A stretch of 64,000 nt of DNA, taken from contig NC_086097.1 in NCBI RefSeq assembly GCF_963921235.1, positions 141,796,001 through 141,860,000 on the forward strand, given 5' to 3'. This DNA comes from Mobula hypostoma. Taxonomy: Eukaryota. Each line of letters starts with the position of its first letter. The stretch's first letter is position 1. The translations under genes and the position numbers were made by a program. The notes below the pieces were generated by a model. That model saw only the letters and a program-made list of their open reading frames with translations, ran no database searches and was not told the origin of the DNA. Positions 2,531-63,212 of the stretch are shown one piece after another.

Positions 2531-2832
2531 AGGCTGATTTATAGTTCTGCGTAAAATCGACGGCGTAGGTACGGTGTAGCTGCGAACCCTACGCAGTCCC
2601 TATGCAAATCCCTACACCGTAGGGTGACGTGCACCTCTCCCAAAATGTAACTACACGTCGCGGCAGTACAGACCGCAACAACTGTGATCGGTCCACTTGG
2701 CAGCATCGCATTTCCTCCTACGCTGCAATAGCTTCCCATTGAACGACTGAAGGGCAGGGAAGGAACTCTGGCTGCAATGCTTTCCATAAAGCTTTACAGA
2801 CCTCCGAAATTATGGAGGACACGTTTCGCTTT
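2531..2832 (-). mobile_element. PIF/Harbinger non-autonomous element, truncated
   Basis: TAA then aggctgatttatagttctgcgt, the same TIR as 6464-7183; collinear with that copy for about 290 bp. Confidence 0.8.
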
Positions 2833-2834
2833 TG

Positions 2835-3920
2835 GGGTCAGCGGTGGAAAGGGTGAACAGCTTGAAGTTCCTGGGTATCAACACAGGATCTATCCTGAGA
2901 CCAACACATTTGTGCAGTCATAAAGAAAGTACAACAGTGGCTTGTTGAGAGTTTGAAGTGATTTGATGTGTTTTGTTTGCAAATTTCTAAAGATGCATGG
3001 AGGTATTTCTGATTGCATCCCAGACTGGTATGGAGACTCTAATGCACAGTATTACCGGATACTGCAGAGGGTTATGGACTCAGTCATCTCCATCTTGGAC
3101 ACAACCCTCCCTACCATCAAATAAATCTTCAACACTTCAAGAGGGAGTTTCTCAAGGTGAAGGACCCTTGCCATCTATGGTGTGACCTCTTGTTGCTACA
3201 ATCAAGGAAGGAGGCAAAGAAACAGGAGAAAATCTGCAGATGCTGGAAATCCAAGCAACACACACAATCTCCAACCTGATGGCATGAACATAGATCTCTC
3301 AAACTTCAGTAATGCCTCCTCTACCCCCTCCCCCTTACGATTTCCCACCCACATACAATGCTGGAGGAACTCAGTAGGTCAGACAGCATTTATAGAAAAG
3401 AGTACAGTTGACATTTCGGGCCAAGACCCTTCAGCGGGATTGGAGAAAAAAAATACCAAACGACCAAAAATAATATCTTTTAAAAAAAGTGACTATAACA
3501 AACAAACCTGTATTTCACACCTATAACAATTAAGACCTTCATTACTTATTGCAGATAATTCCCATAACTGAACCAAGGATTTTGTTTGATGTGTCAGGTA
3601 CCAAATGCCACTATCATCCAAGACATCAAGGCTGCAAAAAAATTTTTTTCTTTCGTCCTGCTGAAAGGTCTTGGCCTGGAAAGAGTGCAGTTTTCATTTC
3701 CATAGATGCTGCCTGGCCCGCTAAGTTCCTCCAGCATTTTGTGTTGAAGGAGGCACAGAAGCCTGTAAAGCCATTCTTTTGCTCTGTCATCAGATATCTG
3801 AACCATCCATGAACACTATCTTGTTATTCCATATATTTGTGCTATTTATTTATTTTGTACTTTATAGTAGTTTTGTCTTTCCAATGTACTGCTGCCACAA
3901 AATGACAAATTTCATCGTCT
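2835..3920 (+). mobile_element. Rex1/Babar LINE 3' fragment interrupted by a Penelope composite
   Basis: Degenerate VERVxxFKFLG region and Rex1-like 3' UTR; reads continuously across 3217-3745 once the gaaggaggca duplication is removed. Confidence 0.7.
3217..3745. mobile_element. Composite Penelope-like insertion: inverted terminal fragments enclosing a copy of flanking DNA
   Basis: 10-bp TSD gaaggaggca at 3207-3216 and 3746-3755; Penelope terminal pieces at 3217-3445 (mostly -) and 3650-3745 (+). Confidence 0.75.
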
Positions 3921-5208
3921 GATATCTCACTGTTGACATGATAAAGATGGTATTTTATGTGGGGAAAAATGGTGCGGTCAAGTAATTTTTATTGTGACGA
4001 TGCTTGAAGAATATTGATGTGAAGGTTGTTTAAGGCCTCAAGTTGCTGTGTAAGCTTTTGTTTTGTCAGTTCTAACAATGGTAAAGTTGACTCTAATGAA
4101 AGGTTTTTAATGACAGTAGCACTTGGTAGCTGATGCATCAAAGAAAATCCTTGGTTCAGTTATTGAAGTGATCTTAAATAGGTATTGAAAATCTCAATTG
4201 TTAAAGGTGTGAAGTACAGATTTTTGTTATGGTCACTTTTTTAAAATAAGATTTTACCTTTGGTCGTTAGAAGACAAATTTTAATCTGTTCAGAAATTGG
4301 TGAATGAATCAGTGTTCTGCTAATTTGGAGGTCAATTCAATCACAGTTTCAGGAGAATTGAAGAGTGCTGTAGAAGGAAGGAAGCAAAAAGCAGTAGTGC
4401 AGCATAGGATACATCATGCCATGAGATATTTGGTTTACTGAAGTGGATATAACTGTCATTTGTAATCTTTGATTCTCTTACCTGTTCTCAGTCAACCAGA
4501 TATTTCCTTGACCTTGCTCTGTCAAGCAAAATTATCCTAGGGTTAACATAAAATCTAGCAAGTGTATATAATCCTCTCTGATGTCAGTTAGTCCTAATAC
4601 AGTATATGCTAGATTCGGCAGTGAATTTAGACTCGCTTGTTTAAAGCTCGCCTGTGGAATCATGTACACGATGGTTGCATGTATGTGATGTTTGTATACT
4701 TGGCTTCTAAGTTCTAGATCCAGAATAGGTCAGCTATTCAATGGAATGGAGGATGTTGGATTGAAAAGATAAATAATTTAAGGTAAGTCAGCATTTTCTC
4801 TTAATTTTGAGCAGTGTGGTATATAATAGTTAAGTGCATTTCTCCCAAAATTCTGGAGTTTCCAATTCTGTCAGCGTGTGATGAGCAGAGAGATTCAATT
4901 CTGTTCAAGCAGACCAGAGGAAGAACCTGACAGGCTATTTTTGATAAAGTCCTGCATGTGAGATATTGATCTTAGGGTTGGAAAGGAGCGAGGGTATTAT
5001 GGAAATACCTTGAAAGGAATATTGGAAACGATTATTAAAAATATTAGTGGGATACTAGGACAAAATTCAAGGTGATCAGGAAGTTGATATTTTTATTTTA
5101 ACCATCATGGAATCATGGTTAGAAAATGGAATAGCTTACATAAAACCAAGATGAAGCGCAAGTATTTTTCTTTGGTTAGTAAGATGAAAGATATGATAGA
5201 TTAATGCT

Positions 5209-5710
5209 ACAACATACATCAAAGTTGCTGGTGAACGCAGCAGGCCAGGCAGCATCTATAGGAAGAAGCGCAGTCGACGTTTCAGGCCGAGACCCTTCGT
5301 CAGGACTAACTGAAGGAAGAGTGAGTAAGGGATTTGAAAGCTGGAGGGGGAGGGGGAGATGCAAAATGATAGGAGAAGACAGGAGGGGGAGGGATGGAGC
5401 CGAGAGCTGGACAGGTGATAGGCAGAAGGGGGTACGAGAGGATCATGGGACAGGAGGTCCGGGAAGAAAGACGGGGGGGGGTGACCCAGAGGATGGGCAA
5501 GAGGTATATTCAGAGGGACAGAGGGAGAAAAAGGAGAGTGAGAGAAAGAATGTGTGCATTAAAAAGAGTAACAGATGGGGTACGAGGGGGAGGTGGGGCC
5601 TAGCGGAAGTTAGAGAAGGCAATGTTCATGCCATCAGGTTGGAGGCTACCCAGACGGAATATAAGGTGTTGTTCCTCCAACCTGAGTGTGGCTTCATCTT
5701 TACAGTAGAG
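5209..5710 (-). mobile_element. Penelope-like element, 5'-truncated 3' end
   Basis: Near-identical to 12043-12540; 13-bp TSD atagattaatgct at 5196-5208 and 5715-5727. Confidence 0.9.
5271..5312 (-). ncRNA. Minimal type I hammerhead ribozyme
   Basis: Minus strand reads cagttAGUC-CUGACGA-a-GGG ucucgg CCU-GAAAC-GUC-GACUg: complete core, stems I and II, GUC cleavage triplet. Confidence 0.8.
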
Positions 5711-6004
5711 ATTAATAGATTAATGCTGTTGTCTCTCTAAATGGCTCGGATGAATGCACTGAAGATTTGCTGTTGATGTAAAGATTGATTGGAAAGTAAT
5801 TTTGAGAAGATACCATAAGGAAACTACGGAGCTATGCATATTGGCTAAGGTATGGGCAAAGTTCTGGCAAGTAGATATTTTAATGTGAAGATTTTGGCAG
5901 TAAAGCTCAATGAACCTGTTCAGGTAGCAAATCTCCAGGTGAGTGACTGCAACTTTAGCTGGGAGACAGTGATCACAGTTCCTGATCTCTGACAGAGATA
6001 GGAG

Positions 6005-6324: not shown

Positions 6325-7828
6325 GTACTATGTGGCTATGTATAGCTCAAATGTCATCTGTAGATTTGCTGATATACCGGCTGGTTCAGTGGTGTTGTAG
6401 CAACAACCTTGCACTCAACGTCAGTAAGATGAAAGAGTTGATTGTGGACTTCAGGAAGAGAAAAGGCTAATTTATACTTCTGCGTCAAAGCTACGCTGTA
6501 GGTACGGTGTAGCCGCATACCCTACGTCGTGGCCGGACGCACACCTCCACCAAAATTGTAACCACACATTGCGCCGACTCAGACCGCAACAACTGTGATT
6601 GGTCCGCTTGGTAGCATTACATTTCCTCCTATGCTGCAATAGCTTCCCATTGGGCGACTGAAGGGCAGGGAAGGAACTCTGACTGCAATGCTTTCCATAA
6701 AGCTTTACAGACCTCCGAAACTATGGAGGACCCTGTGCTTGACGCCAGTTTGTAGCTAGTTGCTACAACCTGTTGACTTTCACCTGAAGCTAAGACTCAA
6801 ATGGTGATTGCCAGTCTCTGAGTATACTGTGCGTACACTGATGTGAAGTAAATGGTTGGAGACGATGAACCAAATCGTCAAATCTACCTGCCGACATCCG
6901 AAAATATTAGCAATGCATTTCCTCGTCCATGTCTCTCAGTGGCTGGACAAGCACAGAAAGTTCACCCTGCTTCAGTTTCAGTCGCCGGTGTTTGAAGTTT
7001 GAGTTTCTTCGTGTTAAATTTCAACACGAAGAAACTCAACACAGTGGCATAGAAACCCCAGCGCCAACTAGCGTTTTGGCGGTGAATTGCAGAGCGATGC
7101 AGACACAGCAAGGCACAAGTATAAATGCCTACAACAGCGTAGGCCACTTGCATAGGCTACTACGCAGAAGTATAAATCAGCCTTAAGATGTGGGAAGACG
7201 AACCAATCTTCATAGATCAGAAGTGGAGAGAGTGAGCATTTTCAAGTTCCTGGGTGTCAAGATCTCTGAGGATTTAACCTGGTTCCAACCTAATGATGCA
7301 GCTATAAAGAAGGAAAGACTGTGGCTGTATTTCCTTAGGAGTTTGAAGAGATTTGGTTTGTCACCTAAAGCACTCAAACTTCTGTAGATGTACTGTGGAG
7401 AGCATTCTGCTACTGCACGGGACCGAAATAAGCTACAGAAAGTTGTAAAGTTAGTCAGCTCCAGCTTGGGTACTGGCCTCTGTAGTATCCAGAATAGCGG
7501 CGTCCATTATTAAGGAGCCTCATCACCCAGGACATGCTCTCTTCGCATTGTTACTGCCAGGAAGGAGGTACAGAAGCCTGAAGGAACACATTCAGTGATT
7601 CAGGAATAGCTCCTTCCCCTCTGCCATCTTCTTTCTATATGGACATTGAACCCATGAAAACTACCTCACTTTTATTATGTTTTTGCACTATTTTTAATTT
7701 AACTGTTTAATACCCATATATTTACTGTAATATATTTACTTTTAACCTTATGTTATCATGTACTGTATTAAGTTGCTACTAAGTTCACAGATTTCACAGC
7801 CTATGGTGATATTAAACCTGATTCTGAT
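6325..7828 (+). mobile_element. Rex1/Babar LINE 3' part, split by Harbinger
   Basis: NNLALNVSKMKELIVDFRK before the insert, SEVERVSIFKFLGVKISEDLTW after it; ends aaacctgattctgat; homologous to 44451-45300. Confidence 0.85.
6464..7183 (-). mobile_element. PIF/Harbinger internally deleted element
   Basis: TIRs aggctaatttatacttctgcgt / acgcagaagtataaatcagcct; flanks AAA and TAA (3-bp TSD, one mismatch). Minus strand encodes YFRMSAGRFDDLV and [40 protein letters not shown], a Harbinger transposase N-terminal region. Confidence 0.88.
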
Positions 7829-8184: not shown

Positions 8185-9046
8185 TGGGTAATGATGAGTT
8201 TGAGTACAGAGAGGAAATTAAGAACCTGGTGGCATGATGTGAAGACAATAACCTATCCCTCAACGTCAGCAAGACGAAGGAATTGGTTATTGACTTCAGA
8301 AGGAGTAGCGGACCGCACGACCCCATTTACATCAGTGGTGCGCAAGTGGAACAGGTCAAAAGCTTTAAGTTCCTTGGGGTCAGTATCACAAATGACCTGA
8401 CTTGGTCCAAACAAGCAGAGTCCACTGCCAAGAAGGCCCACCAGTGCCTTTACTTCCTGAGAAAGAGAAATTTGGCCTGTCCCCTAAAACCCTCACTAAT
8501 TTTTATAGATGCATCGAAGAAAGCATTCTTCTAGGGTGTATCACAACCTGGTATGGAAGTTGTCCTGTCCAAGACCGGAAGAAGTTGCAGAAGATCATAA
8601 ACACAGCCCAGCACATCACACAAACCAATCTTCCATCCTTGGACTCACTTTACACTGCAGGCTATTGGAGCAGTACTGCTAGGATAATCAAGGACATGAC
8701 CCACCCAGCCAACACACTTTTCGTCCCCCTTCGCTCTGGGAGAAGGCTCAGGAGCTTGAAGACCCTAATGGCCAGATTTGGGAACAGCTTCTTTCCAACT
8801 GTGATGAGACTGCTGAACAGATCCCGACCCGGATCTAGGCTGTGCCCTCCAAATATCCGGACCTACCTCTTGGCTTTTTTGCACTACCTTACTTTCCATT
8901 TTCTGTTTTCTATTTATGATTTATAATTTAAAATTTTAATATTTACTATCGATTTGTGCTCCAGGGAGTGGGAAGTGCAGAATCAAATATCGCTGTGATG
9001 ATTGTACATTCTAGTATCAATTGTTTGGCGACAATAAAGTATAAAG
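8185..9046 (+). mobile_element. Rex1/Babar LINE, 5'-truncated, relatively young second family
   Basis: VIDFRR..VEQVKSFKFLGVSITNDLTWS..LTNFYRCIEESIL..WYGSC..FGNSFFPTVMRLLN with few lesions; tail ataaagtataaag. Confidence 0.88.
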
Positions 9047-9674
9047 CACCACTTCATAAATATACAATCAGTCGTGTATACAAGCCATTTTATGTTTGTG
9101 TTTATTTTTTTATTGGTATTATTGTGTTCTTGCATTGGATCTGGAGTAACAATTATTTCGTATTCCTTTATACTTGTATGCAGGAAATCACTAAAAAATC
9201 TTGAATTCTGCCCCAATTCCTAAAGTCATTGATCAGCACTGTAGTTTTGCTGAATTTGCGAGGAGAAGTTATTGCCTTGTCACCATGCCCCCAGTTTTCT
9301 TATCTCCTTCCTCTGCTCTAAATTGTCATTTATTTGAGATTCTACTTACTGTGGTAGTGACTTTTACAAGCTTGTAGATGGAGTTCGAGCAGGTCTAGCA
9401 GTTTGGAATTAATGTATTCTAGGAGCTATAGTCAATTAATACAAGCTTGTGGGTGTCTGTTGTAAGGTGAAGGAAGTCACTGGGGAGACACAGCTGGTAG
9501 ATATAAATTAGTCTATATATTCGATGCACATATTCACAAATAAGCTTGACAGCCTTTTGGAGTCATGCGGGGGGGGGGGGTAGGTGGGGTGGAGAGAAGA
9601 GAGGCAGAGACTCCCCAACCCAACATTACAGCACATCTTAATATGCTAAAGAACAAAGGTAACAGGGCATTTTC

Positions 9675-9792
9675 AAGCAAGAGAAAATCTGCAGATGCTG
9701 GAAATCTGAGCAACACATACAAAATGCTGGAGGAACGCAGCATCTAGGAAAACAGTACATTTGATGTTTCAGGCTGAAACCTTCAGGGACAG
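9675..9792 (-). mobile_element. Penelope-like terminal fragment
   Basis: gagaaaatctgcagatgctggaaat..aaaatgctggaggaac terminus with a decayed hammerhead. Confidence 0.7.
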
Positions 9793-11534: not shown

Positions 11535-12102
11535 CATTCTCCGCGAATCGGTACAGTGTCTGTCCGTGGCCTGGGTGTTGGGGTGGTGGGACACTGGGGT
11601 GTCATCTCATCGTCTGTTTCCATTAGAGCAGTCAGCTCATCTTCTCCTATGACTGGCCACCTCGATGTCGAAGGTAGAGGTTCGTCGTCTGCTGTGGCTG
11701 ATGTAGAAGGCTTGCTTGACTGCTGAGCCTCGCGCATTTTTCTATCATACAGTTCTTTGTAAGGACTCAACCCATCTTGCAAATATCCCCTAAACCTACG
11801 TACCCTTTCAAAATTAAAGTCGTACTTTATCATTGCGAAGATCTCACACAGTTGCTTCACGTTCATTTCGCTAATGAATTTGGTTTCAATTGTTATCCTT
11901 TCTTCCAATTGCATCAGCTCTTCATCTGTCAGTTCTTGGTTATGGGATGCCAAAACCTCTTCAACATCATCTTTGTCAACTTCCACAAGCCAACTTACTT
12001 TGTCCTTGCTTCGTCCACCACAATCGAAATGCTTAACTATGTAACACACATCAAAGTTGCTGGTGAGCGCAGCAGGCCAGGCAGCATCTCTAGGAAGAGG
12101 TG

Positions 12103-12144
12103 CAGTTGACCTTTCAGGCCGAGACCCTTCGTCAGGACTAACTG
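12103..12144 (-). ncRNA. Hammerhead ribozyme, mutated stem III
   Basis: CUGACGA..GAAA core present, but GAAAG-GUC-AACU disrupts the ACGU palindrome and the first stem I pair. Confidence 0.6.
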
Positions 12145-12431
12145 AAGGAAGAGTGAGTAAGAGATTTGAAAGTTGGAGGGGGAGGGGGAGATCCAAAATG
12201 ATAGGAGAAGACAGGAGGGGGAGGGATGGAGCCAAGAGCTGGACAGGTGATTGGCAAAAGGGATACGAGAGGATCATGGGACGGGAGGTCCGGGAAGAAA
12301 GACAAGGGGTGGGGGAACCCAGAGGATGGGCAAGGGGTATATTCAGAGGGACAGAGGGAGAAAAAGGAGAGTGAGAGAAAGAATGCGTATAAAAATAAGT
12401 AACAGATGGGATACGAGGGGGAGGTGGGGCA

Positions 12432-13550
12432 TTAGCGGAAGTTAGAGAAGTCGATGTTCATGCCATCAGGTTGGAGGCTACCCAGATGGAATATAAGGTG
12501 TTCCTCCAACCTGAGTGTGGCTTCATCTTTACAGTAGAGGAGGCCTTGGATAGACATATCAGAATGGGAATGGGACGTGGAATTAAAATGTGTGGCCACT
12601 GGGAGATCCTGCTTTCTCTGGCGGACAGAGCGTAGGTGTTCAGCAAAGCGGTCTCCCAGTCTGCGTCGGGTCTCGCCAATATATAAAAGGCCACATCGGG
12701 AGCGTCGGATGCAGTATATCACCCCAGCCGACTCACAGGTGAAGTGTTGCCTCACCTGGAAGGACTGTTTGGGGCCCTGAATGGTGGTAAGGGAGGAAGT
12801 GTAAGGGCATGTGTAGCACTTGTTCCGCTTACACGGATAAGTGCCAGGAGGGAGATCAGTGGGGAGGGATGGGGGGGGACGAATGGACAAGGGAGTCGCG
12901 TAGGGAGCGATCCCTGCGGAAAGCAGAGAGAGTGGGGGAGGGAAAGATGTGCTTAGTGGTGGGATCCCGTTGGAGGTGGCGGAAGCTACGGAGAATAATA
13001 TGTTGGACCCGGAGGCTGGTGGGGTGGTAGGTGAGGACCAGGGGAACCATTACTAGTGGGGTGGCGGGAGGATGGAGTGAGAACAGATGTATGTGAAATG
13101 GGGGAGATGTGTTTAAGAGCAGAGTTGATAGTGGAGGAAGGGAAGCCCCTTTCTTTAAAAAAAGAACATCTCCCTCGTCCTGGAATGAAAAACCTCATCC
13201 TGAGAGCAGATGCGGCGGAGACGGAGGGATTGTGAGAAGGGGATGGTGTTTTTGCAAGAGACAGGGTGAGAAGAGGAATAGTCCAGATAGCTGTGAGAGT
13301 CAGTAGGCTTATAGTAGACATCAGTGGATAAGCTGTCTCCAGAGACAGAGACAGAAAGATCTAGAAAGGGGAGGGAGGTGTCGGAAATGGACCAGGTAAA
13401 CTTGAGGGCAGGGTGAAAATTGGAGGCAAAGTTAATAAAGTCAACGAGCTCTGAATGCATGCAGGAAGCAGCGCCAATGCAGTCGTCAAGGTAGCGAAGG
13501 AAAAGTGGGGGACAGATACCAGAATAGGCACGGAACATAGATTGTTCCAC
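12432..13550 (-). pseudogene. Penelope RT C-terminus, Cys linker and GIY-YIG endonuclease (frameshifted)
   Basis: FLRYLDDCIG, LPFLDLSV, VYYKPTDSHSYLDYSSSHP (RT/thumb); CKRNKCYTC linker; GVIYCIR..LLYIGETRRRLGDRFAEH (GIY-YIG); split over three frames. Confidence 0.9.
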
Positions 13551-14382
13551 TATGCTTAACTATGTCTAGGTTTACGCTAAGTGTAACACCCTTATAAGCT
13601 CTTTTAGGCTTTTCCGACACTACGACTGCTCACAGGCATGTGTTTAAGCAATGCCGTTCTGAATCTGGGGGAGGAGCGGCTGCTTGGGGCGCATGCTGCT
13701 TTTTATCGCGTGCTGATTTTTTTTCGTAACAGTGAAAACACCTGAAAGTGAAAACAGGGTACTAATGTAGGTCTTTCATAACAGTGAGGTTTCGTAAAGT
13801 GAACATTGGAAAAGCAGGGGACACCTGTAAAGAGTTAAAGTTGCATTCACTGTAGTACGTGGTGTCTTTGCATCGGGTAGATCGAAAGAAGTTTACGACA
13901 CCTGGAAAAGTTAGGGTAACACAGTTTGAACATTGTAGGCCTGAACTTCAGTAGGGCATGGGTTTCTTGTTTCGTTTGTGGTTTCCTGTTGGGGAATACC
14001 TGGATTGACCTATTTACAGTCCTCTACACCCTTACTGAACTGTGATACCTCATTATGTTTGAATGTCGAATACTTTCTGTACTGGTTCCTTGTGTTTTAT
14101 TTATTTTTCTGTTTGTATGGAGGACAAAGCAGTACAACCTGATGATCTGATCTAACAAAGTGAGGGCAGGGATGGATCAGGGGGCATCTTTAGTTGTGTA
14201 ACAACGGTCAGTGCTTTTTGGATCTCTGGTGGGATGGGAAATGTGGAGCACACTTCTGAAGTTGGTTGGCTATGATGAATAGTGCCACAGGATGTATTAT
14301 TTAAAGCTGTGGATCACAGAGTATAGCTCACTCAGTGCAGCCTTCATGTACACTTGTGGTGGGATGTAGGCAACTGATAGCT

Positions 14383-15196: not shown

Positions 15197-16753
15197 TCTC
15201 TCTTGTGAACCCTTTAGAATTTTCTCTTTCTGCATAAATATGACCTAAAATATGATCAGATTTCATTTGTCTTAAAACGAGATAAAGAACCTAATTAAAT
15301 AAATAACACAAACATTATACTTTTTCATTTATTTATTGAGAAAAGTGATAGAATATTGTCGTTGTCGGAAAAAGTATTTGAACCTTTGCTTTCAGTAACT
15401 GGTGTTATCCCCTTGTACAGCAATAACTTTAACCAAATGTTTCTGGTAACTGTTGATCAGACCTGCGCATTGGCTTGGAGGAATTTTAGGCCATTCCTCC
15501 CTACAAAACTGCTTCAACTTGGGATGTTCGTGGGCTTCCTTGCATGAACTGCTTGCTTCAGGTCTTTGTATGACATTTCTAGACTCACGCGTTCCAAGAT
15601 GTGAAATTTCTTCTGCTTTAACCATTCTTTGCTAAACTGACTTGTGTGTTTAGGGTTGTTGGCTTGCTGTATGACCCACTTTCTCTCGAGCTTCAGTTCA
15701 GGGACGAATACCCTGAAATTTTCCTGTAGAATTTGCTGGTATTCAGAATTCATAGTTCAATCAATGATGACGAACTGCTTTGGTCCCAGGGCAGCAAAGC
15801 AGGCTCAAACCGTGACACTGCCTCCACCATGTTTCACAGATGGGATGAGGTGCTTGTGCTGGAATGCAGTGTTTGCTTTACACCAAACATACTGCTTCTC
15901 ATTTAAGCTAATGTTCTTTAGAGGGACTCGTCTGTCGACAGAATATTGTTCCAATATTCTTCTGGCTTATCCATGTGGTCCTTAAGCAAACTTCAGATGG
16001 GCAGCAATGTTCTTCTTGCAGTGTAGTGGCTTTCTCCTTGCATTCCTGCCATGCATACCATTGTTCAGTGTTTGCCTGATGGTAGACTCAAGAACACTGA
16101 CATTAGCCAATGCAAGGGAGGCCTATAGCTCCTTAGATGTTACCCTGGGGTTCTTTGTGACCTCCTGGAATATTACACACCATGTTTTTGGAGTGATTTT
16201 TTTTTTGTTGGCCAACCACTTCTGGAGAGAGTAACAGTGGTGTTGAATTTCCTCTATTTGACACTATATGCCTGACTGTGGACTGGTGGAACCGAAACTC
16301 TTTAGAAATGGTTTTGTGTCTTTTTCCAGCCTGGTAAGTATCAACAACTTTTATATCTGCGTCCTCAGAAATCTCCTTTGATTGAGGCATGGCACACTTC
16401 CAAAATCGTGAAGATCAGACTTTGATAGTGAAGACTCAGATTTATGTTCTTCAAATACGGCAGGGTCTCCCACATTCACACCTGATTGTCATCCCATCAA
16501 TTGAAACACTTGACTCTAATTTCCCCTTTAAATGAACTGATAATCCCAGAGGTTCACATACTTTTTCCAGCAAATACTTGTAATATTGGGTCATTTTTCT
16601 CAATAAATGAAGAACAAGTATAATGTTTTATTGTGATATTTAATTGGGTTCTCTTTATCTAGTTTTAGGACTTGCATGAAGATCTGATCACCTTTTGAGC
16701 CATATTTATGCAGAAATAGAGAAAATTCTAAAGGGGACTTTCTAGCACCACTG
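15196..16753 (-). mobile_element. Tc1 IR/DR-type transposon, decayed
   Basis: About 200-bp TIRs; MPQSKEISED..KVVDTYQAGKRHKTISKEF, MNSEYQQILQEN..QQANNPKHTS, LKQFCREEWPKIP; right end cactg-TA; left tip eroded by the microsatellite. Confidence 0.9.
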
Positions 16754-16759
16754 TATACA

Positions 16760-17320
16760 TACATGCTCCTGTACCGCCACCTTGATGGTAGCAGTGAAAA
16801 GAAGGCATTGTGTTGGATGATGGGGGCCCTTAATGATGGATGCTGTCTTTTTTTTTTGAGGCTTTGCCATTTTAAGGTGTCTTTGATGCTGCTGGAGGCT
16901 AGTGCCCATGATGAAGATGGCTGAGTTTACAACTTTCTGCAGCTTTTTCCAATCCTTTGCAGTGACCCTTCTATACCAGATGGTGACACACAAATTAGAC
17001 GCAAAATGCTGGAGGAACTCAGTAGGTCAGGCAGCATCTATGGAAGAGTATAGTCGACATTTTGGGCCTAGACCCTTTAGGATGGAGCTGCTGAAGTTCC
17101 CAGCTTGAAACGTCGACTGTTTACTCTTTTGCATGGAAGCTGCCCACCCTGATGAGTTCCTCCAGCATTTTGTGTGTGAGTTGCTTGAATTTCCAGCATC
17201 TGCAGATTTTCTCTTGTTTGTGATTTGATGCAACTGGTTAGAATGTTCTCCATTGTACCTCTGTAGAAATTGTGAGTTTTTAATGCCATAGCAAATCTTC
17301 TCAAACTCCTAATGAATTAT
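16760..17320 (-). mobile_element. Rex1/Babar fragment carrying an inverted pair of Penelope termini (16987-17220)
   Basis: NFYRGTMENILTSCI and WYRRVTAKDWKKLQKVVNSA flank two oppositely oriented Penelope terminal fragments. Confidence 0.75.
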
Positions 17321-17743
17321 TTTGTGCACAAGAAAGTCAGTAATGCTGTAAGCTATAGGTTAATTTATTTTTTGAGGAAATCACAGTTGGTCAGGTAGGC
17401 TTTGGGCCCTTCATGCAATTGAAGAGCCTTCAACAGTCTTGTTTGCCTACAGAACATTAGGTATTTGCTTTAAAACACCAAATTATAACACTACCTCTGT
17501 AACTCAGTTTTAAATGAATCTTCCCTTGTGTCCGTCTCCCATTAGTTGAAATATTTTAATATCTATACTCTCACGTGCCCTTATGATTTTGTGTTTTATT
17601 AAGATCACCCCTCATTTTTCCAAACTCAAACTTGTTCATCTGTTCGTGTTCATGGCCGGACAGCTATACCTTTCCAGCAGTTAAATTATTAAACCTTATG
17701 GATAGCTTCCTACGCTACTTAATCTTGAAGAGGACCAAAACTA

Positions 17744-19309
17744 CAGCTGCAAGAAAAAGTTTGTGAACCCTTTGCAGTTATGTAGTTTTCTGCATTAATT
17801 ACTCATAAAATGTGGTCTGATCTTCATCTAAGGCACAATAATAGAAAAACGTAATCTGCCTAAACTAATAACGTAAAGACTTTTCATGTCTTTTTGAACA
17901 CATTGTTTGATCATTCACAGTCCAGGCTGGAAAAAGTATGTGAAACCTTGTATTTAATAACTTGTAGAACCTCCTTTAGCAGCAATAACCTCCATCAAAT
18001 GTTTCCTGTGGCTGCTGATCAGACTTGCACAGTAGCAAGGAGGAACTTTAGACCATTCCACCATATAAAGCTATTTCAGTTCATCAATATTTCTGGGATT
18101 CCTTGCATGACCACTCCTCTTCAGGTTATGCCACAACATCTCAATTGGGTTAAGGTCAGGACTCTGACTTGGCCATTCCAAAACACAAATTTTCTTCTTT
18201 TTAAACTATTCTGTTGTTGGTTTACTCTTGTTTCAGATTATTGTCTTGTTGCATCATCCAACTTCTATTAAGCTTCAGATGATTGTCTTGTAAAATGTCT
18301 TGATACAATTTGGAATTCATTGTTCCCTCAATGGTTGCAAGCTGTCAAGGCACTGAGGCAGCAAAGCAGCCCTAAGCCATGATGTTCCTTTCACCATGTT
18401 TCACAGGTGGAATGAGGTTTTGGTGTTGGTGTGCAGTGCCCTTTTTCCTCCAAACAAAGCAGCGTGCATTTCTGCCAGAAAGTTCTTTCTTTTGTCTCAT
18501 CTGTCCACATAACATTGTCCCAGAAGCATTGTGGAGCATCCAGGTGGTCTTTTGCAAATTTGAGATGTGCAGCAATGTGTTTTTTTTTGAATAGTATCCT
18601 CTGTGGTGTCCTTCCATGAACACCATTTTTGTTCAATGTTTTCTTTATAATGGACGCATGAACAGAGACTTCAGCAATTTTGAGAGATTTCTGCAGGTCT
18701 TTTGCTGTTTCCCTTTGGTTCTTTTTCATCTCCTTCAGCATTGTGCTTTCGGTGTGATCTTTGCAGGACACCCACTGCTAGAGAGTGTAGCAACAGTACT
18801 GAATTTCCTCCATCTGTCGACAGTTTTTCTTGCTGTGGATTGATGAACGTTCAGGTCTTTAAAATGCTTTTGAAGCTTTTTGCAGCTTCATGCATCTCTA
18901 CAATTCTAAGGTCCTCTGAATGTTGTTTTGATCAAGGCATGGCACACATGAACAGATCTTGAGAAGAGCAGGCTCTGTCAGTAACCTAAACTGTGTGTCT
19001 TTTTCGTAGATAGGGTAGGGCATTTCTGCAACCCACACCTCCAATCTCATTTCATTGATTGGGGCACCTGATTCCAAATAGCTTTTGTAGAAGGCATTAC
19101 CCCAGAAGTTAACGTACTTTTTTGAACCTAAACTGTGATTGTTTAAATGGTGTACTCTGTATTAATGAGAAGTACAATTATTTGTGTTATTAGTTTAGGC
19201 AGATTGTATTTGTCCGTTGTGACTTAGATGAAGATCGGACCACACTTTGAGTAATTAATGCAGAAAACCAGTTAATTGTAAAGAGTTCACAAACTCCTTT
19301 TTGCAACTG
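17744..19309 (-). mobile_element. Tc1 IR/DR-type transposon (second family), in a CR1 remnant
   Basis: TA-cagctgcaagaaaaagtttgtgaac ... gttcacaaactcctttttgcaactg-TA; HLKFAKDHLDAPQCFWDNVMWTDETK, PVKHGERNIM. Confidence 0.92.
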
Positions 19310-19474
19310 TATACAGTTACTCCAGGTACAGCCTCACCAACATCCTCTAGAATTGTTTTATAATTTCCTTAATTGTAAACAAAATTACTTGTAAGAAAAG
19401 CCAATGTCCCATGTATCTTCCTAAATATTTGCTGCATCTGCATGGTAATTTGTGTGTCTTATATAGAAACATTG

Positions 19475-19769
19475 ATGTTATGAACAGAGCAAACACAAAA
19501 AAGAGAAATAATTTATGGGATCATGAAAAGGCAACGTAACTTTATTGGACATGTGATTAGGAAAGAGGAGTTAGAATGCATGGTAATTATGGGAAAGATT
19601 GAAGGGAAGAAAGCAAGAGGAAGACAGAGACAAATGATGATGGAGACAGCAGCCAGAGAATTGGAAATGAATATCAATGAATTGATCCACTTGACCCGAA
19701 ACAGGAGTGTGTGGGCCATAGCAGTCAAAGCTCAAACTGGGCATGGCACCTGATGATGATGATGATGAT
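19475..19769 (+). mobile_element. RTE-clade LINE 3' end with (TGA)n tail
   Basis: MKRQRNFIGHVIRKEELECMVIMGKIEGKKARGRQRQ is a typical RTE/RTEX C-terminus; a second shorter copy lies at 19841-19965. Confidence 0.8.
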
Positions 19770-21001
19770 TCCTTTTCACCTGCATCATGTCATTGTGACC
19801 CAGCCAATGACCAAGGCTTTTACTAAATACAGAGGTGTTGAGACATGGAGACAGCAGCCAGAGAACTGGAAATGAATACCAATGAATTGCTCCACTTGAC
19901 CTGAAACAGGAGTGTGTGGGCCATGGCAGTCAAAGCTCAAACTGGGCATGGCACATGATGATGATATAGAAACACCATCCAGATACATCTGCACTTAATT
20001 GTAATCTTCCTTTTAGATAATAGACTGCCCTTTGTTTCCTCCTGAGGTGCATGGCTTTAGACTTCCATGAGCTGCATGCTATTTGTGTCAATGTGCATTT
20101 GGCTGTGGCCTCAACTAAGCATCTGAAGCTGGTTCTTGATTCATGAGGTACAATGGAGCAAAGAACCTTTCTACCAAAAATTCAACAACTCCTTTCAAAT
20201 TTAATTTGATAGTATGTAAAGCGTACAGAGTTGAATACTGTCAAATTTGATATATATAGACATTAAGTGAAATTTATCCAGATGATTATAAAATATATTC
20301 CCATGTATTGAAGTTAAGATGCATTTTAACTAGGTTTGGAAAAAAATTGCAGTGAATGGAATCGAAGCTGCTGCAGGCTGGTTAAAATTGATGTGGGTCC
20401 GGCGCTGAAATTTCGCAGCGGTCCAGATGACAATGGCTTTGGGTTCTGGAGTGCAGTGTTTGTACAAATGACCCTCAGTTGATTGATTTGATGTATCCCA
20501 CAAAAAGGTGTGCATTCCTTGCCTGTGGTGTTCAATAAATTTATAATTATTACATATTTTCTATTCTCTGCGTTGTCTGCCCCAGCCTTCACAGATGAAG
20601 GTTTAACATGTGCAGTTTGACTATAGATACTTATGAAAAATTTGCATGCTTTCCCTTTTACTATTATTTTGGCCAAATTTGAGAAATTCTCATCAGAAAC
20701 ATTGACTGGTTTTCAACTAATTTAGTTTTGACACAAGCATTGTTTCTTTACCACATTTGAAGCAGAACAAGGAAGGGAAATGTGTCCAATATGTTCAAAC
20801 TTTCACATTTTAAACAGTAAGAAGTAGTAGAAGTTAATTTACAAAGTTATTAAATGCATTTGTTTTGAAACAGTTGTACTACTTGACCTTAATAAAGAGA
20901 TGCACTGAACAATGCTTGCTTGCAAATAGGCAGTACAGTGGTTTTTTTGGCAAAAAGTTGTTTATTTTGATTACTTTTGTCATCAGACTGTTTAAAAATT
21001 C

Positions 21002-25374: not shown

Positions 25375-26280
25375 CAACACACATCAAAGTTGCTGGTGAA
25401 CGCAGCAGGCCAGGCAGCATCTCTAGGAAGAGGTACAGTCGACGTTTCGGGCCGAGACCCTTCATCAGGACTAACTGAAGTACGAGCTAATAAGAGATTT
25501 GAGAGGGGGAGGGGGAGATCCAAAATGATAGGAGAAGACAGGAGGGGGAGGGATGGAGCCAACAGCTGGACAGGTGATATGAGAGGATCGTGGGACAGGA
25601 TGCCCAGAGAGAAGGGAAAGGGGGAGGAGGGGAAAACCCCAGAGGATAGGCAAGGGGTATAGTGAGAGGGACAGAGGGAGAAAAAGGAGAGAGGGAGAGA
25701 AAGGATGTGTGTGTATAAATAAATAACGGATGGGGTACGAGGGGGAAGTGGGGCATTAGCGGAAGTTAGCGAAGTCAGTGTTCATGCCGTCAGGTTGGAG
25801 GCTACCCAGATGGAATATAAGGTGTTGTTCCTCCAACCTGAGTGTGGCTTCATCTTTACAGTAGAGGAGGCCGTGGATAGACATATCAGATTGGAATGGG
25901 ATGTGGAATTAAAATGTGTGGCCACTAGGAGATCCTGCTTTCTCTGGCGGACAGAGCGTAAGTGTTCAGCGAAATGATCTCCCAGTCTGCGTCGGGTCTC
26001 GCCAATATATAGAAGGCCACATCGGGAGCACCGGACGCAATATATCACCCCAGTCGACTCACAGGTGAAGTGTCGCCTCACCTGGAAGGACTGTCTGGGG
26101 CACTGAATGGTGGTAAGGGAGGAAGTGTAAGGGCATGTGTAGCACTTGTTCCGCTTACAAGGATAAGTGCCAGGAGGGAGATCAGTGGGGAGGGATGGGG
26201 GGGATGAATGGACAAGGGAGTCGCGTAGGGAGCGATCCCTGTGTAAAGCAGAGAGGGGGAGGGAAAGATGTGCTTAGTGG
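25375..26280 (-). mobile_element. Penelope-like element, 5'-truncated (GIY-YIG plus 3' terminus)
   Basis: GVIYCVRCSRCGLLYIGETRRRLGDHFAEH; highly similar to 12043-12960; short tcatg duplication at the junctions. Confidence 0.9.
25436..25477 (-). ncRNA. Minimal type I hammerhead ribozyme, best preserved copy
   Basis: AGUC-CUGAUGA-a-GGG ucucgg CCC-GAAAC-GUC/GACU; predicted cleavage between 25441 and 25440. Confidence 0.85.
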
Positions 26281-43329: not shown

Positions 43330-45300
43330 ATTGGCACTATCGCCCAGTAGCATTCACATCTACAGTGATAAAATGTTTTGAGAGGTTGGTCATGAGTAAA
43401 CTGAACTCCTGCATCAGCAAGGACCTGGAGCCATTGCAATTTGCTTATCACCACAATAGATCAACGGCAGATGCGATCTCAATGGCTCTTCACACGGCTT
43501 TAGACCACCTGGACAACACAAACACCTATGTCAGGATGCTGTTCATCGACTATAGCTCGGCACTTAATACCATCATTCCCACAATCCTGATTGAGAAGTT
43601 ACAGAACCTGGGCCTCTGTACCTCCCTCTGCAATTGGATCCTCGACTTCCTAACAGGAAGACCACAGTTTGGTGATAATATCTCCTCGCTGACTATCAGC
43701 ACTGATGCACCTCGAGGGTGTGTGCTTAGCCCACTGCTCTACTTTCTCTATATCCATGACTGTGTGACTGGATATGGCTCAAAAACCATCTATAAATCTC
43801 CTTATAAATAAGGAGGGAGGAGAAGATGGCGGCGCGACGCAGTGCGTGCGGCCGTTCCGAATGAATATCGATATGTGTAACTAGGGGGCCGTGCACAATC
43901 CAGATTTGATGGGGACAGCTGTGAGAAGCGCAGAGGAACATCTGGAGTAACTTCTGAAATGCCTGCTTCACTGCTGCTGCTACTGTGCGATCGAGAATCT
44001 CCAGAGATGAAGGCCCCAAATCCTCGGCTTTGCGTATCGCCTGTTGCTGGGACCAGGGCCGAAACGCTCCGAAGAGATGGTGCTCGGTGTCGAATGGGTG
44101 GTCGGAGGCTTGGAGTTTTTCGGATGGACTTGGAGTCGGACTGTGGTTGGATGCTTCCGGGATGCTGCATCTGCAAAGTTGGCGGAGCTGGAGGTTCACC
44201 GTCTGCGTGAGATGATGGGACTTTCGAGAGACGCTGAGACTTTTACTGTGCCATGATCTGTTCTTATCAAATTACGGTATTGCTTTGCACTGTTGTAACT
44301 ATGTTATAATTATGTGGTTTTTGTTAGTTTTAAAGTCAGTTTGTCAGGTGTTTTCGTGATAGCATTCTGGAAAAACATTTTTATCATTTCTTGATGCATG
44401 CATTACTAAATGACAATAAAAGGGGACTGCGTGTCCTCATAATCATAATCATAAATTTGCTGATGATACAACCATTGTTGGTAAAATCTCAGATGGTGAC
44501 GAGAGGACATACAGGAGCGAGATATATGTGGTGTTGCAGCAACAACCTGGCACTCAACATCAGTAAGATGAAAGAGCTGATTGTGGACTTCAGGAAAGGT
44601 AAGACAAAGGAGCACATACCAATCCTCATAGAGGGATCAGAAGTGGAGAGAGTGAGCAGTTTCAAGTTCTTGGGTGTTAAGATCTCTGAAGATCTAACCT
44701 GGTCCCAACACACCGATGCAGTTATAAAGAAGGCAAGACAGCAACTATACTTCATTAAAGAGTTTGAAGAGATTTGGTATGTCAACAAATACACTCAAAA
44801 AATTTATACAGATGTACCCTGGAGAGCATTTTGACAGGCTGCATCAGTGTCTGGTATAGGGGCTTACTGCACAGGACCGGAAAAAGCTGCAGAGGGTTGT
44901 AAATTTAGTCAGCTCCATCTTGGGCACTAGCAAAGTACACAGGACATCTTCAAGGAGCAGTGTATCAGAAAGGCGGTGTCCATTATTAAGGACCTCCAGC
45001 ACTAGGTAGGAGGTACAAAAGCCTTGAAGGCACGCACTCAGCAATTCAGGAGCAGCTGCTTCCCCTCTGCCATTCGATTCCTAAGTGGACATTGAACCCT
45101 TGAACACTACCTCACTTTTTAAATATATTATTTGTTTTTTTTGTACTATTTTTAAACTATTCAATATACGTATCTTATAATTGATTTAATTATTATTTTA
45201 TTTTTTTCTTTCTTCTATATTATGTATGCATTGAACTGCTGCTGCTAAGTTAACAAATTTCATGACACATGCCGGTAATAATAAACCTGATTCTGAATCT
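43330..45300 (+). mobile_element. Rex1/Babar LINE RT to 3' tail, interrupted
   Basis: [63 protein letters not shown]; tail cctgattctgaatct. Confidence 0.9.
43798..44450 (+). mobile_element. Non-coding CpG-rich retroposon (LINE-dependent, non-tRNA head)
   Basis: Splits the Rex1 YKFADD motif with an ataaat TSD (43792-43797, 44451-44456); 5' aagatggcggcg; AATAAA and (ataatc)n tail. Confidence 0.7.
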
Positions 45301-58770: not shown

Positions 58771-59873
58771 ACGGAGGCTTCAATGTGTAGGATCAAAAGA
58801 GGCTAATGCAGGTTGTATTGTCAGCCAGCTTAATCATGAGCAGAACCCCTCACCGTTGACATCTTCAAAAGGTAGTGCCTTAAGAAGACAACCTCTATTA
58901 TTATGGACCCTCGCCATTTCTTGGGATGCCCTCTTCTCAGTGCTACCATTGGGGAAGGAAGTACAGGAGCTTGAAGACACACACTCCACATTTTAGGAAT
59001 AACTTCTTCCCCTCTGCTATCAGATTTCTGAATGGTCCTTGAGTAGATAGATACTTTATTGTTCTCAAAGGAAATTAGTGACACAGTAGCATCACAAGTG
59101 CAGAGATATACAGATATACAAATATTTGAAGATACATATTAGAAGTACTGCATTGCTGTTCTTATTTTACAGTAACTGTTCATGAATCCATCCGTCTGCT
59201 TAGCCATGTGATCTTCATGTCTTGCAATGCGCTGCCTCTATAAAACAAATTTCATGACATGTCAGTGATCATAATTCTGGTTCTGACTCTACCTGTTTCC
59301 ATGACTTTACTGTTGGACTCACCAGCCTGTTGCTTCCTGGCATGTCTTGCGACTTTCCTTAAATAAAGGTACAACTTCAGCTATCTCCAATCTTCTAGTA
59401 CGTCAACTGTGGCTAAAGAAGAACCTCAGCAATTTCATCTAAGACCTTGCCTATCTCCTGTTGTTTCATACATAGATCCATGCATAAGGGGATTCTCTTG
59501 TCTGGGTTGCCTTTTTGCTCTATTATATACTTGTAAAATCTCCTGGGGTTCCCAATCCTCTTTGTCAAGGATATGTCCTGTCTCCTTTTGCTTTCCTTCC
59601 TGATTTCATTCTTACTTGTACTCCTACATCCATTATACTTAGTTTCCTCTACCAGCCATGTTTTTTTGCCTGATCGGAGTCTCAATATCCCTGGAGCCAA
59701 GGTTCCAGGTTCCAGGGTTCCATAACACTTAACAGAAATGTATTTGCCCTGAACTTCTCGCTATCTTATTTTTAAAATTTCTCATACTTGCCAGACATCC
59801 CTTTAACTACTAACTTGAAAGTTTATTTGGGAAGGCTGTTACCAAAATCAGCTTTGATCCTATTTATTATTAA

Positions 59874-61355: not shown

Positions 61356-61576
61356 TCCCTGCCAGCAAAGTTTGAGTTGAAGGAATTGACAATGTTACAG
61401 ATCTGAAAATAAATAGTTTTAGGGAAGATAAGAACATATCTGAAACACATTGGCAAGGACTTAAATCATTGCCTGTTTCAAGTTGTCCAGTTAATTTTCA
61501 GATTCAAGCGTGGTAGAGTAATATATTGACAATGAAAGTATTTTTTTGACAGTGAATAGCTTTGGCTAACTATGTA

Positions 61577-63200
61577 CAGTAGCATGCAAAAGTTTGGGCA
61601 CCCCAGTCAAAATTTCTGTTACTGTGAATAGTTAAGTGAGCAGAAGATGAATTGATCTCCAAAGGTCATAAAGTTAAAGGTGAAACATTCTTTTCAACAT
61701 TTTAAGCAAGATTTGTGTATTATTTTTGTTTTGTATAATTTTAGAGTGAAAAAAGGAAAGGAGCACCATGCAAAAGTTTGGGCACCCCAAGAGATTTGAG
61801 CTCTCAGATAACTTTTACAAAGGTCTCAGACCTTAATTAGCTTGTTAGGGCTATGGCTTGTTCACAGATGTTGTTAGGAAAGGCCAGGTGATGCAAATTT
61901 CAAAGCTTTATAAATACCCTGACTCCTCAAACCTTGTGCCAACAATCAGCAGCCATGGGTTCCTCTAAGCAGCTGCCCAGCACTCTGAAAATTAAAATAA
62001 ATGATGCCCACAAGGCAGGAGAAGGCTATAGGAAGATAGCAAAGCGGTTTCAGGTAGCCGTTTCCTCAGTTCGTAATGTAATTCAGAAATGGCAGTTAAC
62101 AGGAACGGTGGAGGTCAAGTTGAGGTCTGGAAGACCAAGAAAACTTTGAGAGAACTGCTCATAGGATTGCTAGAAAGGCAAATCAAAACCCCCATTTGAC
62201 TGCAAAAGACCTTCAGGAAGATTTAGCAGACTTTGGAGTGGTGGTGCACTGTTCTACTGTGCAGTGACACCTGCACAAATATGACCTTCATGGAAGAGTG
62301 ATTAGAAGAAAACCTTTCCTGCTTCCTTACCACAAAATTCAGTGTCAGAAGTTTGCAGAGGAACATCTAAACAAGCCTGATGCATTTTGGAAACAAGTCC
62401 TGTGGACTATGAAGTTAAAATAGAACTTTTTGGCCACAATGAGCAAAGGTACGTTTGGAGAAAAAAAGAGTGCAGAATTTCATGAAAAGAACACCTCTCC
62501 AACTGTTAAGCACAGGGGTGGATCGATCATGCTTTAAGCTTGTGTTGCAGCCAGTGGCACGGGGAACATTTCACTGGTAGAGGAAAGAATGAATTCAATT
62601 AAATACCAGCAAATTCTGGAAGCAAACATCACACCGTCTGTAAAAAAAAATGCTGAAGATGAAAAGAGGATGGCTTCTACAACAGGATAATGATCCTACA
62701 CACACCTCAAAATCCACAATGGACTACCTCAAGAGGCGCAAGCTGAAGGTTTTGCCATGGCCCTCACAGTCTCCCAACCCAAACATCATCAAAAATCTGT
62801 GGGTAGACCTCAGAAGATCAGTGTATGCAAGACGGCCCAAGAATCTCACAGAACTAGAAGCCTTTTGCCAGGAAGAATGGGTGAAAACCCCCCCAAACAA
62901 GAATTGAAAGACTCTTAGCTGGCTACAGAAAGTGTTTACAAGCTGTGATACTTGCCAAAGGGGGTGTTACTAAGTACTGCCATGCAGGGTGCCCAAACTT
63001 TTGCTTTGGGCTCTTTTCCTTTTTTGTTATTTTGAAACTGTAAAAGATGGAAATAAAAAAAGTAATCTTGCTTAAAATATTAAAGAAATGTGTCATCTTT
63101 AACATTATGCCTTTTGGAAATCAGTTCATCTTTTACTCACTTAACTATTCACAGTAACAGAAATTTTGACCAGGGGTGCCCAAACTTTTGCATGCCACTG
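61577..63200 (+). mobile_element. Tc1 IR/DR-type transposon, full length (third family)
   Basis: TA-cagtagcatgcaaaagtttgggcaccc ... gggtgcccaaacttttgcatgccactg-TA; about 210-bp TIRs with the direct repeat atgcaaaagtttgggcaccc. Confidence 0.95.
61955..62980 (+). pseudogene. Tc1 DD34E transposase, inactivated
   Basis: MGSSKQL..RSGRPRKL, VKHRGGSIML*, QQDNDPTHTS, WPSQSPNPNIIKNLW (catalytic E read as K); several stops and frameshifts. Confidence 0.9.
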
Positions 63201-63212
63201 TATGCTTGTAAG

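Follow-up and report, generated by a model that had tools for sequence, protein, structure and literature searches.

A head-to-head Penelope-like insertion in Mobula hypostoma whose filler is an inverted copy of nearby single-copy DNA

The insertions of Penelope-like elements (PLEs) have been described in rotifers, where, according to the accessible text of PMC3846280, inverted pLTRs are enclosed by a target-site duplication (TSD), one arm may carry a tail, palindromes occur at the junctions, and non-coding sequences have been captured between solo pLTRs. The inverted-pLTR layout is presented as general among PLEs in the available part of PMC8557442. The PLE protein of an anole cuts and extends both strands in vitro and uses two start sites that bound the tail (PMC11167929, accessible sections). 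Copying of nearby DNA is described for other retroelements and for broken chromosomes. The available portion of bioRxiv 10.1101/2024.08.27.596794 reports templated copies of nearby DNA in 22 cases among 3,598 L1 insertions, typically shorter than 250 bp and with the donor within 15 bp. Excerpts of further papers describe L1 chimeras with cellular RNAs, formed by template switching or twin priming (PMC13174262), 'snap-back' 5′ junctions of R2, at which priming by the cDNA ends takes place on neighbouring rDNA (PMC11371274), fold-back inverted insertions at yeast breaks, mostly 5–34 bp long (PMC11724301), and templated insertions derived from break-flanking DNA (PMC7407515); general background is given in the accessible part of PMC10760644.

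It is an open question in PLE biology how integration finishes and how host DNA, including introns, is captured. In the published cases of PLE cargo the donor is not beside the target, whereas at the locus described here it is identifiable, local and inverted. The locus lies in a stretch of 64,000 nucleotides from Mobula hypostoma (the window), and all positions refer to that stretch. A literature search that extended to few subscription papers found no PLE that carries a templated filler of local origin, and no work on the PLEs of rays.

Anatomy of the insertion and its target

The insertion contains two PLE arms in opposite orientation, with both 3′ ends directed outward (Table 1). From left to right it consists of the tail, an inverted 81-bp piece of PLE ORF, the left arm with its A8 run, five unassigned letters, the filler, a linker, and the right arm. 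The two arms, complementary at 76 of 102 positions, both end at one A/T run; they diverge from other PLE copies by 12–29%. The inverted Penelope termini and the filler between them had been recognized in the initial annotation, and both hold; the nested 81-bp piece, the 25-nt linker and the restriction of the tail to the left arm had been overlooked.

Table 1. Features of the insertion, its target and the donor of the filler
Feature	Position	Strand	Evidence
Older LINE 3′ part, left half (insertion target)	2830–3221	+	Flanks align across the insertion point
TSD, left copy	3207–3221	+	First 10 bp exact, 14/15 overall; the two final letters are shared with the PLE tail
PLE 3′ extension (tail)	3220–3268	-	Matches four other PLE tails in the window
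PLE ORF end and 3′ UTR start, 81 bp, inverted relative to the arm	3269–3349	+	Matches other PLE ORF ends
Left PLE terminal arm (pLTR end), ends in A8	3350–3453	-	Matches to PLE ends; contig depth
Filler, inverted copy of the donor	3459–3617 (weak extension possible to 3624)	-	blastn, local alignment, organism B contig
Linker, 25 nt, ends in A7	3618–3642	.	Sequence
Right PLE terminal arm, tail-less, starts with T7	3643–3745	+	PLE-end alignment
TSD, right copy	3746–3760	+	14/15 against the left copy
Older LINE 3′ part, right half	3746–3920	+	Same LINE alignment
Donor of the filler, single-copy DNA	4110–4268	+	Continuous with flanks in contigs of three relatives

The tail is identical to those at 17170–17222 and 9672–9725 at 45 of 49 and 43 of 48 positions, respectively, and two further tails match it at 42 of 50 and 35 of 42. 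The 81-bp piece resembles the ORF ends of the PLE copies at 5584–5644, 12415–12476 and 25739–25800 (79–84%). It lacks a PLE 3′ end, sits at the boundary between tail and arm, and is framed there by direct repeats alike at nine of ten positions (3259–3268 and 3350–3359). It is either the product of a separate, second insertion or the trace of a template jump made while the first was in progress. The end of the linker and the start of the right arm form a perfect A7/T7 palindrome (3636–3649). No source of the linker was found nearby at up to four mismatches in 19 letters, and its resemblance to the end of a PLE arm does not reach significance (P 0.06–0.11 for the three best of nine targets).

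The arms resemble the ends of the PLE copy at 12044–13550 (75–77%) and belong to a related, more decayed subfamily. The ORF of that copy contains a GIY-YIG domain above the Pfam cut-off (25.1 versus 22.6 bits). Judged by this match, the family of the arms carries a C-terminal GIY-YIG nuclease and belongs to the endonuclease-bearing PLEs, and the locus displays the inverted pLTRs, the TSD and the one-armed tail of that group. A YLDD motif upstream of the nuclease presumably represents the motif of a PLE-type reverse transcriptase; a search with a 123-residue putative reverse transcriptase piece returned no relevant Pfam or PDB match. Inspection by eye revealed motifs in young PLE copies that we take to resemble the hammerhead core. 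In the left arm the presumed hammerhead-like motif is decayed, and the same applies to the right arm. Rfam yielded no match at gathering score in the 64-kb window, hammerhead included.

Both flanks of the insertion belong to one continuous LINE copy, which aligns to 7200–7800, 44620–45260, 58780–59050 and 8340–8960, and therefore the insertion is clean. The Pfam match of this LINE is sub-threshold. The initial annotation had placed the insertion within a single 10-bp TSD. The exact 10-bp repeat exists (3207–3216 and 3746–3755), and an exact 10-mer occurred in two of 3000 trials with random boundary pairs. However, the duplication is probably 13–15 bp long, with 14 of 15 letters alike, because matches to PLE-family contigs begin at 3220 and two younger, 5′-truncated PLE copies (5194–5727 and 12028–13566) have TSDs of 13–15 bp. 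A match of 14 in 15 is plausible for an insertion of such age; at 18% divergence, at most one mismatch in 15 letters has a P of 0.22. When TSDs were sought at eight other PLE copies in the window, with boundaries that were guessed, repeats of 13–15 bp emerged at two. At the 5′ junction of the copy at 5194–5727, a few additional letters repeat the target.

Other head-to-head PLE forms were observed. A shorter pair at 16990–17222 lies in a LINE-like target and has a tail on one arm only; a filler of comparable size and a TSD of at least 6 bp were looked for there and not found. In contigs from other parts of the sampled genomes, antisense and sense PLE ends are linked over short distances, so that tiny head-to-head forms recur.

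The filler, its donor and their age

The filler is the reverse complement of the donor, as the initial annotation had proposed, and the alignment leaves it far above shuffled sequence. The two are identical at 131 of 157 aligned letters, a divergence of 16.6% (95% CI 11–23%); blastn aligns them at 81% over 161 columns (E 4e-39), and their local score of 199 compares with a maximum of 52.5 among 300 dinucleotide shuffles of 3459–3624. No further copy of the filler was detected by blastn in the 64-kb window, where the next-best match was no better than E 0.12. The donor lies outside the insertion, but begins about 350 bp beyond it instead of the approximately 400 bp previously given, and it spans distances of 350–510 bp from the target. 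With more than 2 billion contig letters per DNA run, the probability that chance alone would place a donor within 0.5 kb of the target is below 1e-6. Because the donor is so close to the target, copying took place at the target locus itself.

The window contains 27 self-matches no more than 5 kb apart, of which twelve are inverted and four are single-copy on both sides, the filler and donor among them. The other three of these four pairs resemble, as we assume, terminal repeats of the Tc1 type. The possibility that filler and donor are themselves terminal repeats of a DNA transposon was rejected, since both are single-copy and the pair crosses the TSD boundary. Three elements with terminal inverted repeats of 130–220 bp, which we take to be Tc1/mariner-like, are located at 15210–16735, 17742–19311 and 61575–63202. 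At 19640–19965 a LINE-like tail that ends in a trinucleotide run is directly duplicated over 121 bp, with 95% identity.

The copy number of the segments was assessed by matching contigs of four public runs, among 23 listed, at 80% likeness. Summed contig depth is not equal to copy number, but a family as alike as filler and donor would still pile up. In the four runs the depth reached 6e4–2e6 in the arm bins (1e5–8e5 in the left arm), 0–3.6 in the filler core and 2.8–10.6 in the donor, the last resembling the single-copy DNA beyond it. Neither filler nor donor showed a pile-up of contigs in any of the four runs at this likeness. This agrees with the earlier impression that the segment is non-repetitive, and it makes a dispersed repeat family, of which the window would hold one pair, an unlikely source of the filler. 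The term 'MITE-like cassette' from the initial annotation is not retained: the window has a single copy of the filler, the four runs show no pile-up, and the cassette was not itself copied. Its inverted ends are termini of a retroelement and not the TIRs of a DNA transposon. The view that local single-copy DNA was copied into a head-to-head PLE insertion bounded by a TSD is supported. Beyond the donor, the single-copy DNA contains splice donor motifs that appear consensus-like by eye, at 4475–4540 (- strand) and 4715–4780 (+ strand), where no gene is established.

Contigs of related genomes show that the insertion is old. A single contig of organism B, which differs from the window by 27 of about 1,310 letters, spans 3406–3722 and includes the filler and both its junctions. 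Organism C (57 differences over about 1,120 letters) has contigs across both outer junctions, and in organism I (92 over about 1,130) a contig crosses the left junction into the nested 81-bp piece. The filler core bin is without cover in organism C, but a second sample of organism A leaves the same bin bare, so the gap carries no weight. In each of organisms B, C and I the donor runs unbroken into its flanks; the contig records concerned span 3963–5081, 3834–4962 and 3887–5200. Neither an empty site nor an ortholog lacking the filler was seen in the contigs of these three related species, each of which has at least one junction or the filler, and the insertion is older than the three species splits. 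The age of the event corresponds to about twice the divergence of organisms A and I (16.6% versus 8.1%). Among the variants listed, 40 of 200, three are in the donor; those at 4118 and 4135 carry the letter of the filler and that at 4121 differs. The variant at 4135 may reflect parallel CpG decay.

No PLE was found beside the donor, either from 3745 to 5200 or in the contigs of the three relatives. 3′ transduction is therefore ruled out, as it lacks a source PLE next to the donor, and a donor both local and inverted leaves no room here for read-through transduction. Had the filler been older than the arms, two PLE insertions exactly at its edges within one TSD would have been required, and the LINE is continuous outside that TSD. 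We consider it very improbable that a low-copy repeat was inserted twice, that the filler was transduced from a source PLE, or that the duplication preceded the PLE pieces. Such histories are consistent with the lack of an observed empty site, and a repeat with very few copies, or with copies less than 80% alike, would escape contig matching; they are opposed by the missing pile-up in all four runs at 80% likeness, the one pair in the window and the donor without an adjoining PLE. The local, inverted donor with no PLE next to it shows that the insertion acquired its cargo where it landed.

Possible routes of capture

Based on the arrangement of arms, filler and donor, and on published properties of retroelement proteins, a mechanism can be proposed in which the filler was captured in the course of one PLE integration by DNA fold-back of the right-hand cDNA; we hold this to be probable, with modest confidence. 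The GIY-YIG nuclease would cut both strands about 15 bp apart within the old LINE, and from each 3′ end, used as primer, a PLE RNA end would be reverse-transcribed. The cDNA begun at the outer start would carry the tail, the one begun at the inner start would lack it, and both would stop after about 100–230 nt. The right-hand cDNA, an extension of the bottom strand in the right flank, would then fold back, prime on that strand near 4110, and copy about 160 nt heading away from the break before release. The released end would be joined to the left cDNA, and fill-in would produce the TSD. Another way to the same product would be invasion of the downstream duplex by the left cDNA.

Priming on two strands and the two start sites are borrowed from the literature: two-strand extension and two starts, as in the anole PLE, would account for two outward arms with one tail. 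Simultaneity, fold-back in cis, a DNA template and the enzyme responsible are what we infer. Since the right arm, read on the bottom strand, continues into top-strand sequence of 4110–4268, the template would be the bottom strand of its own flank, and the orientation and side of the donor would fit the strand exposed by 5′–3′ resection of the right end. Fold-back would require about 520 nt of single-stranded bottom strand. As an inverted copy of DNA that flanks the break, the filler has the form of a fold-back templated insertion, and the confidence interval of its divergence from the donor overlaps the range of divergence of the arms from other PLE copies. The junctions contain short A/T-run and 7-nt likenesses, which after about 17% decay are not separable from chance. 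The distance of the donor counts against fold-back, since L1 donors typically lie no more than 15 bp away, and so do the length of yeast fold-backs, mostly 5–34 bp, and the 25-nt linker, for which the mechanism does not account. None of eight further PLE 5′ ends or centres examined in the window had a comparable local copy.

Both arms end at one A/T run, as expected if a palindrome had formed first, and this also speaks against fold-back at integration. The filler could accordingly have arisen in two steps: a head-to-head PLE pair would have come first, and a later break at its palindromic centre would have been repaired with an inverted patch of the SD-MMEJ/MMBIR type, with no PLE enzyme involved. 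We regard this as a serious alternative, yet on the unlikely side. The pair at 16990–17222 has no filler, and such joints are found genome-wide; the linker looks, loosely, like a second copy of the left-arm end; and the nested 81-bp piece, if a secondary insertion, would mean that the locus was hit again later. Templated insertions from break-flanking DNA are, moreover, well known, as set out in the accessible parts of PMC11724301 and PMC7407515. However, two rare events would be required at one spot, the ages of filler and arms overlap, the likeness of the linker is not significant, and arms that are alike at 76 of 102 positions were perhaps never a perfect palindrome.

The template may instead have been RNA, as the initial annotation had allowed in naming pre-mRNA as an option. 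The PLE reverse transcriptase would have jumped to a nascent transcript of the locus during integration, a route that we judge quite unlikely. Nascent RNA is inherently local, and L1 chimeras with cellular RNAs, produced by template switching or twin priming, are described in the available excerpt of PMC13174262. A jump to nascent RNA of either strand would give the same filler orientation from one arm or the other, provided that the matching strand was transcribed, so that orientation counts less in favour of DNA fold-back. Nevertheless, an RNA template needs transcription of the locus, whereas the cis-DNA geometry of the fold-back mechanism gives the orientation without RNA. None of the 23 listed runs is recorded as RNA. 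The contigs of run X5, guessed to be RNA, differ from the window over the donor and further on at one letter in 478 and at none in 360, but as contigs drop minority variants, this near-identity carries no information about A-to-I editing.

In a read-through transcript, the filler and donor are predicted to form a long RNA stem, which had been raised as a possibility before. The predicted fold pairs them on either strand (z -12.6 and -11.9 relative to 20 shuffles), and their longest perfect pairing run is 20 bp. Any such inverted repeat would pair in this way, and no function is claimed. Wobble bias indicates no strand (6 versus 10). The product of the event is a dead, decayed, one-off scar.

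Comparison with known systems

Each ingredient of the locus has been published, and what is described here is a PLE insertion of the head-to-head type with cargo from a local donor. On its own, one old and decayed scar of no known function proves little. We speculate that PLE cargo is captured as a rule by DNA-templated synthesis where two PLE cDNAs meet, from donors that are physically near, although we think it unlikely that this generalization will hold. If it were true, host cargo framed by PLEs could keep its introns without antisense or unspliced RNA templates, and the present locus would mark the short-distance extreme of a range of cargoes. The orientation and distance of donors can be counted genome-wide in a PLE-rich genome.

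As far as the accessible text on Pen2a_Av/Pen2 of Adineta vaga goes, the locus shares with these elements the inverted terminal repeats, the single TSD, the tail on one arm and the palindrome at the inverted junction. It differs from them in arms of only about 100 bp, in having no ORF between the arms, and in the host DNA inside. Its tail is about 40–49 bp long, compared with 30–40 bp in the PLEs covered by the available descriptions. The published pLTR-framed cargo, to the extent that the sources detail it, likewise consists of non-PLE DNA between pLTRs within a single TSD; here, by contrast, the donor is 350–510 bp from the target, inverted, and without an adjoining PLE. The proposed route resembles what excerpts on L1 and R2 describe, in that a cDNA end primes a short copy of near-target DNA before joining, but the element is of another class, and the copy lies between two cDNAs and is fixed in the germ line. 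Break fold-backs, in the parts of the reports at hand, similarly yield an inverted copy of the DNA flanking a break; they differ from the filler in being mostly 5–34 bp long in yeast, in lying adjacent to the break, and in involving no retroelement.
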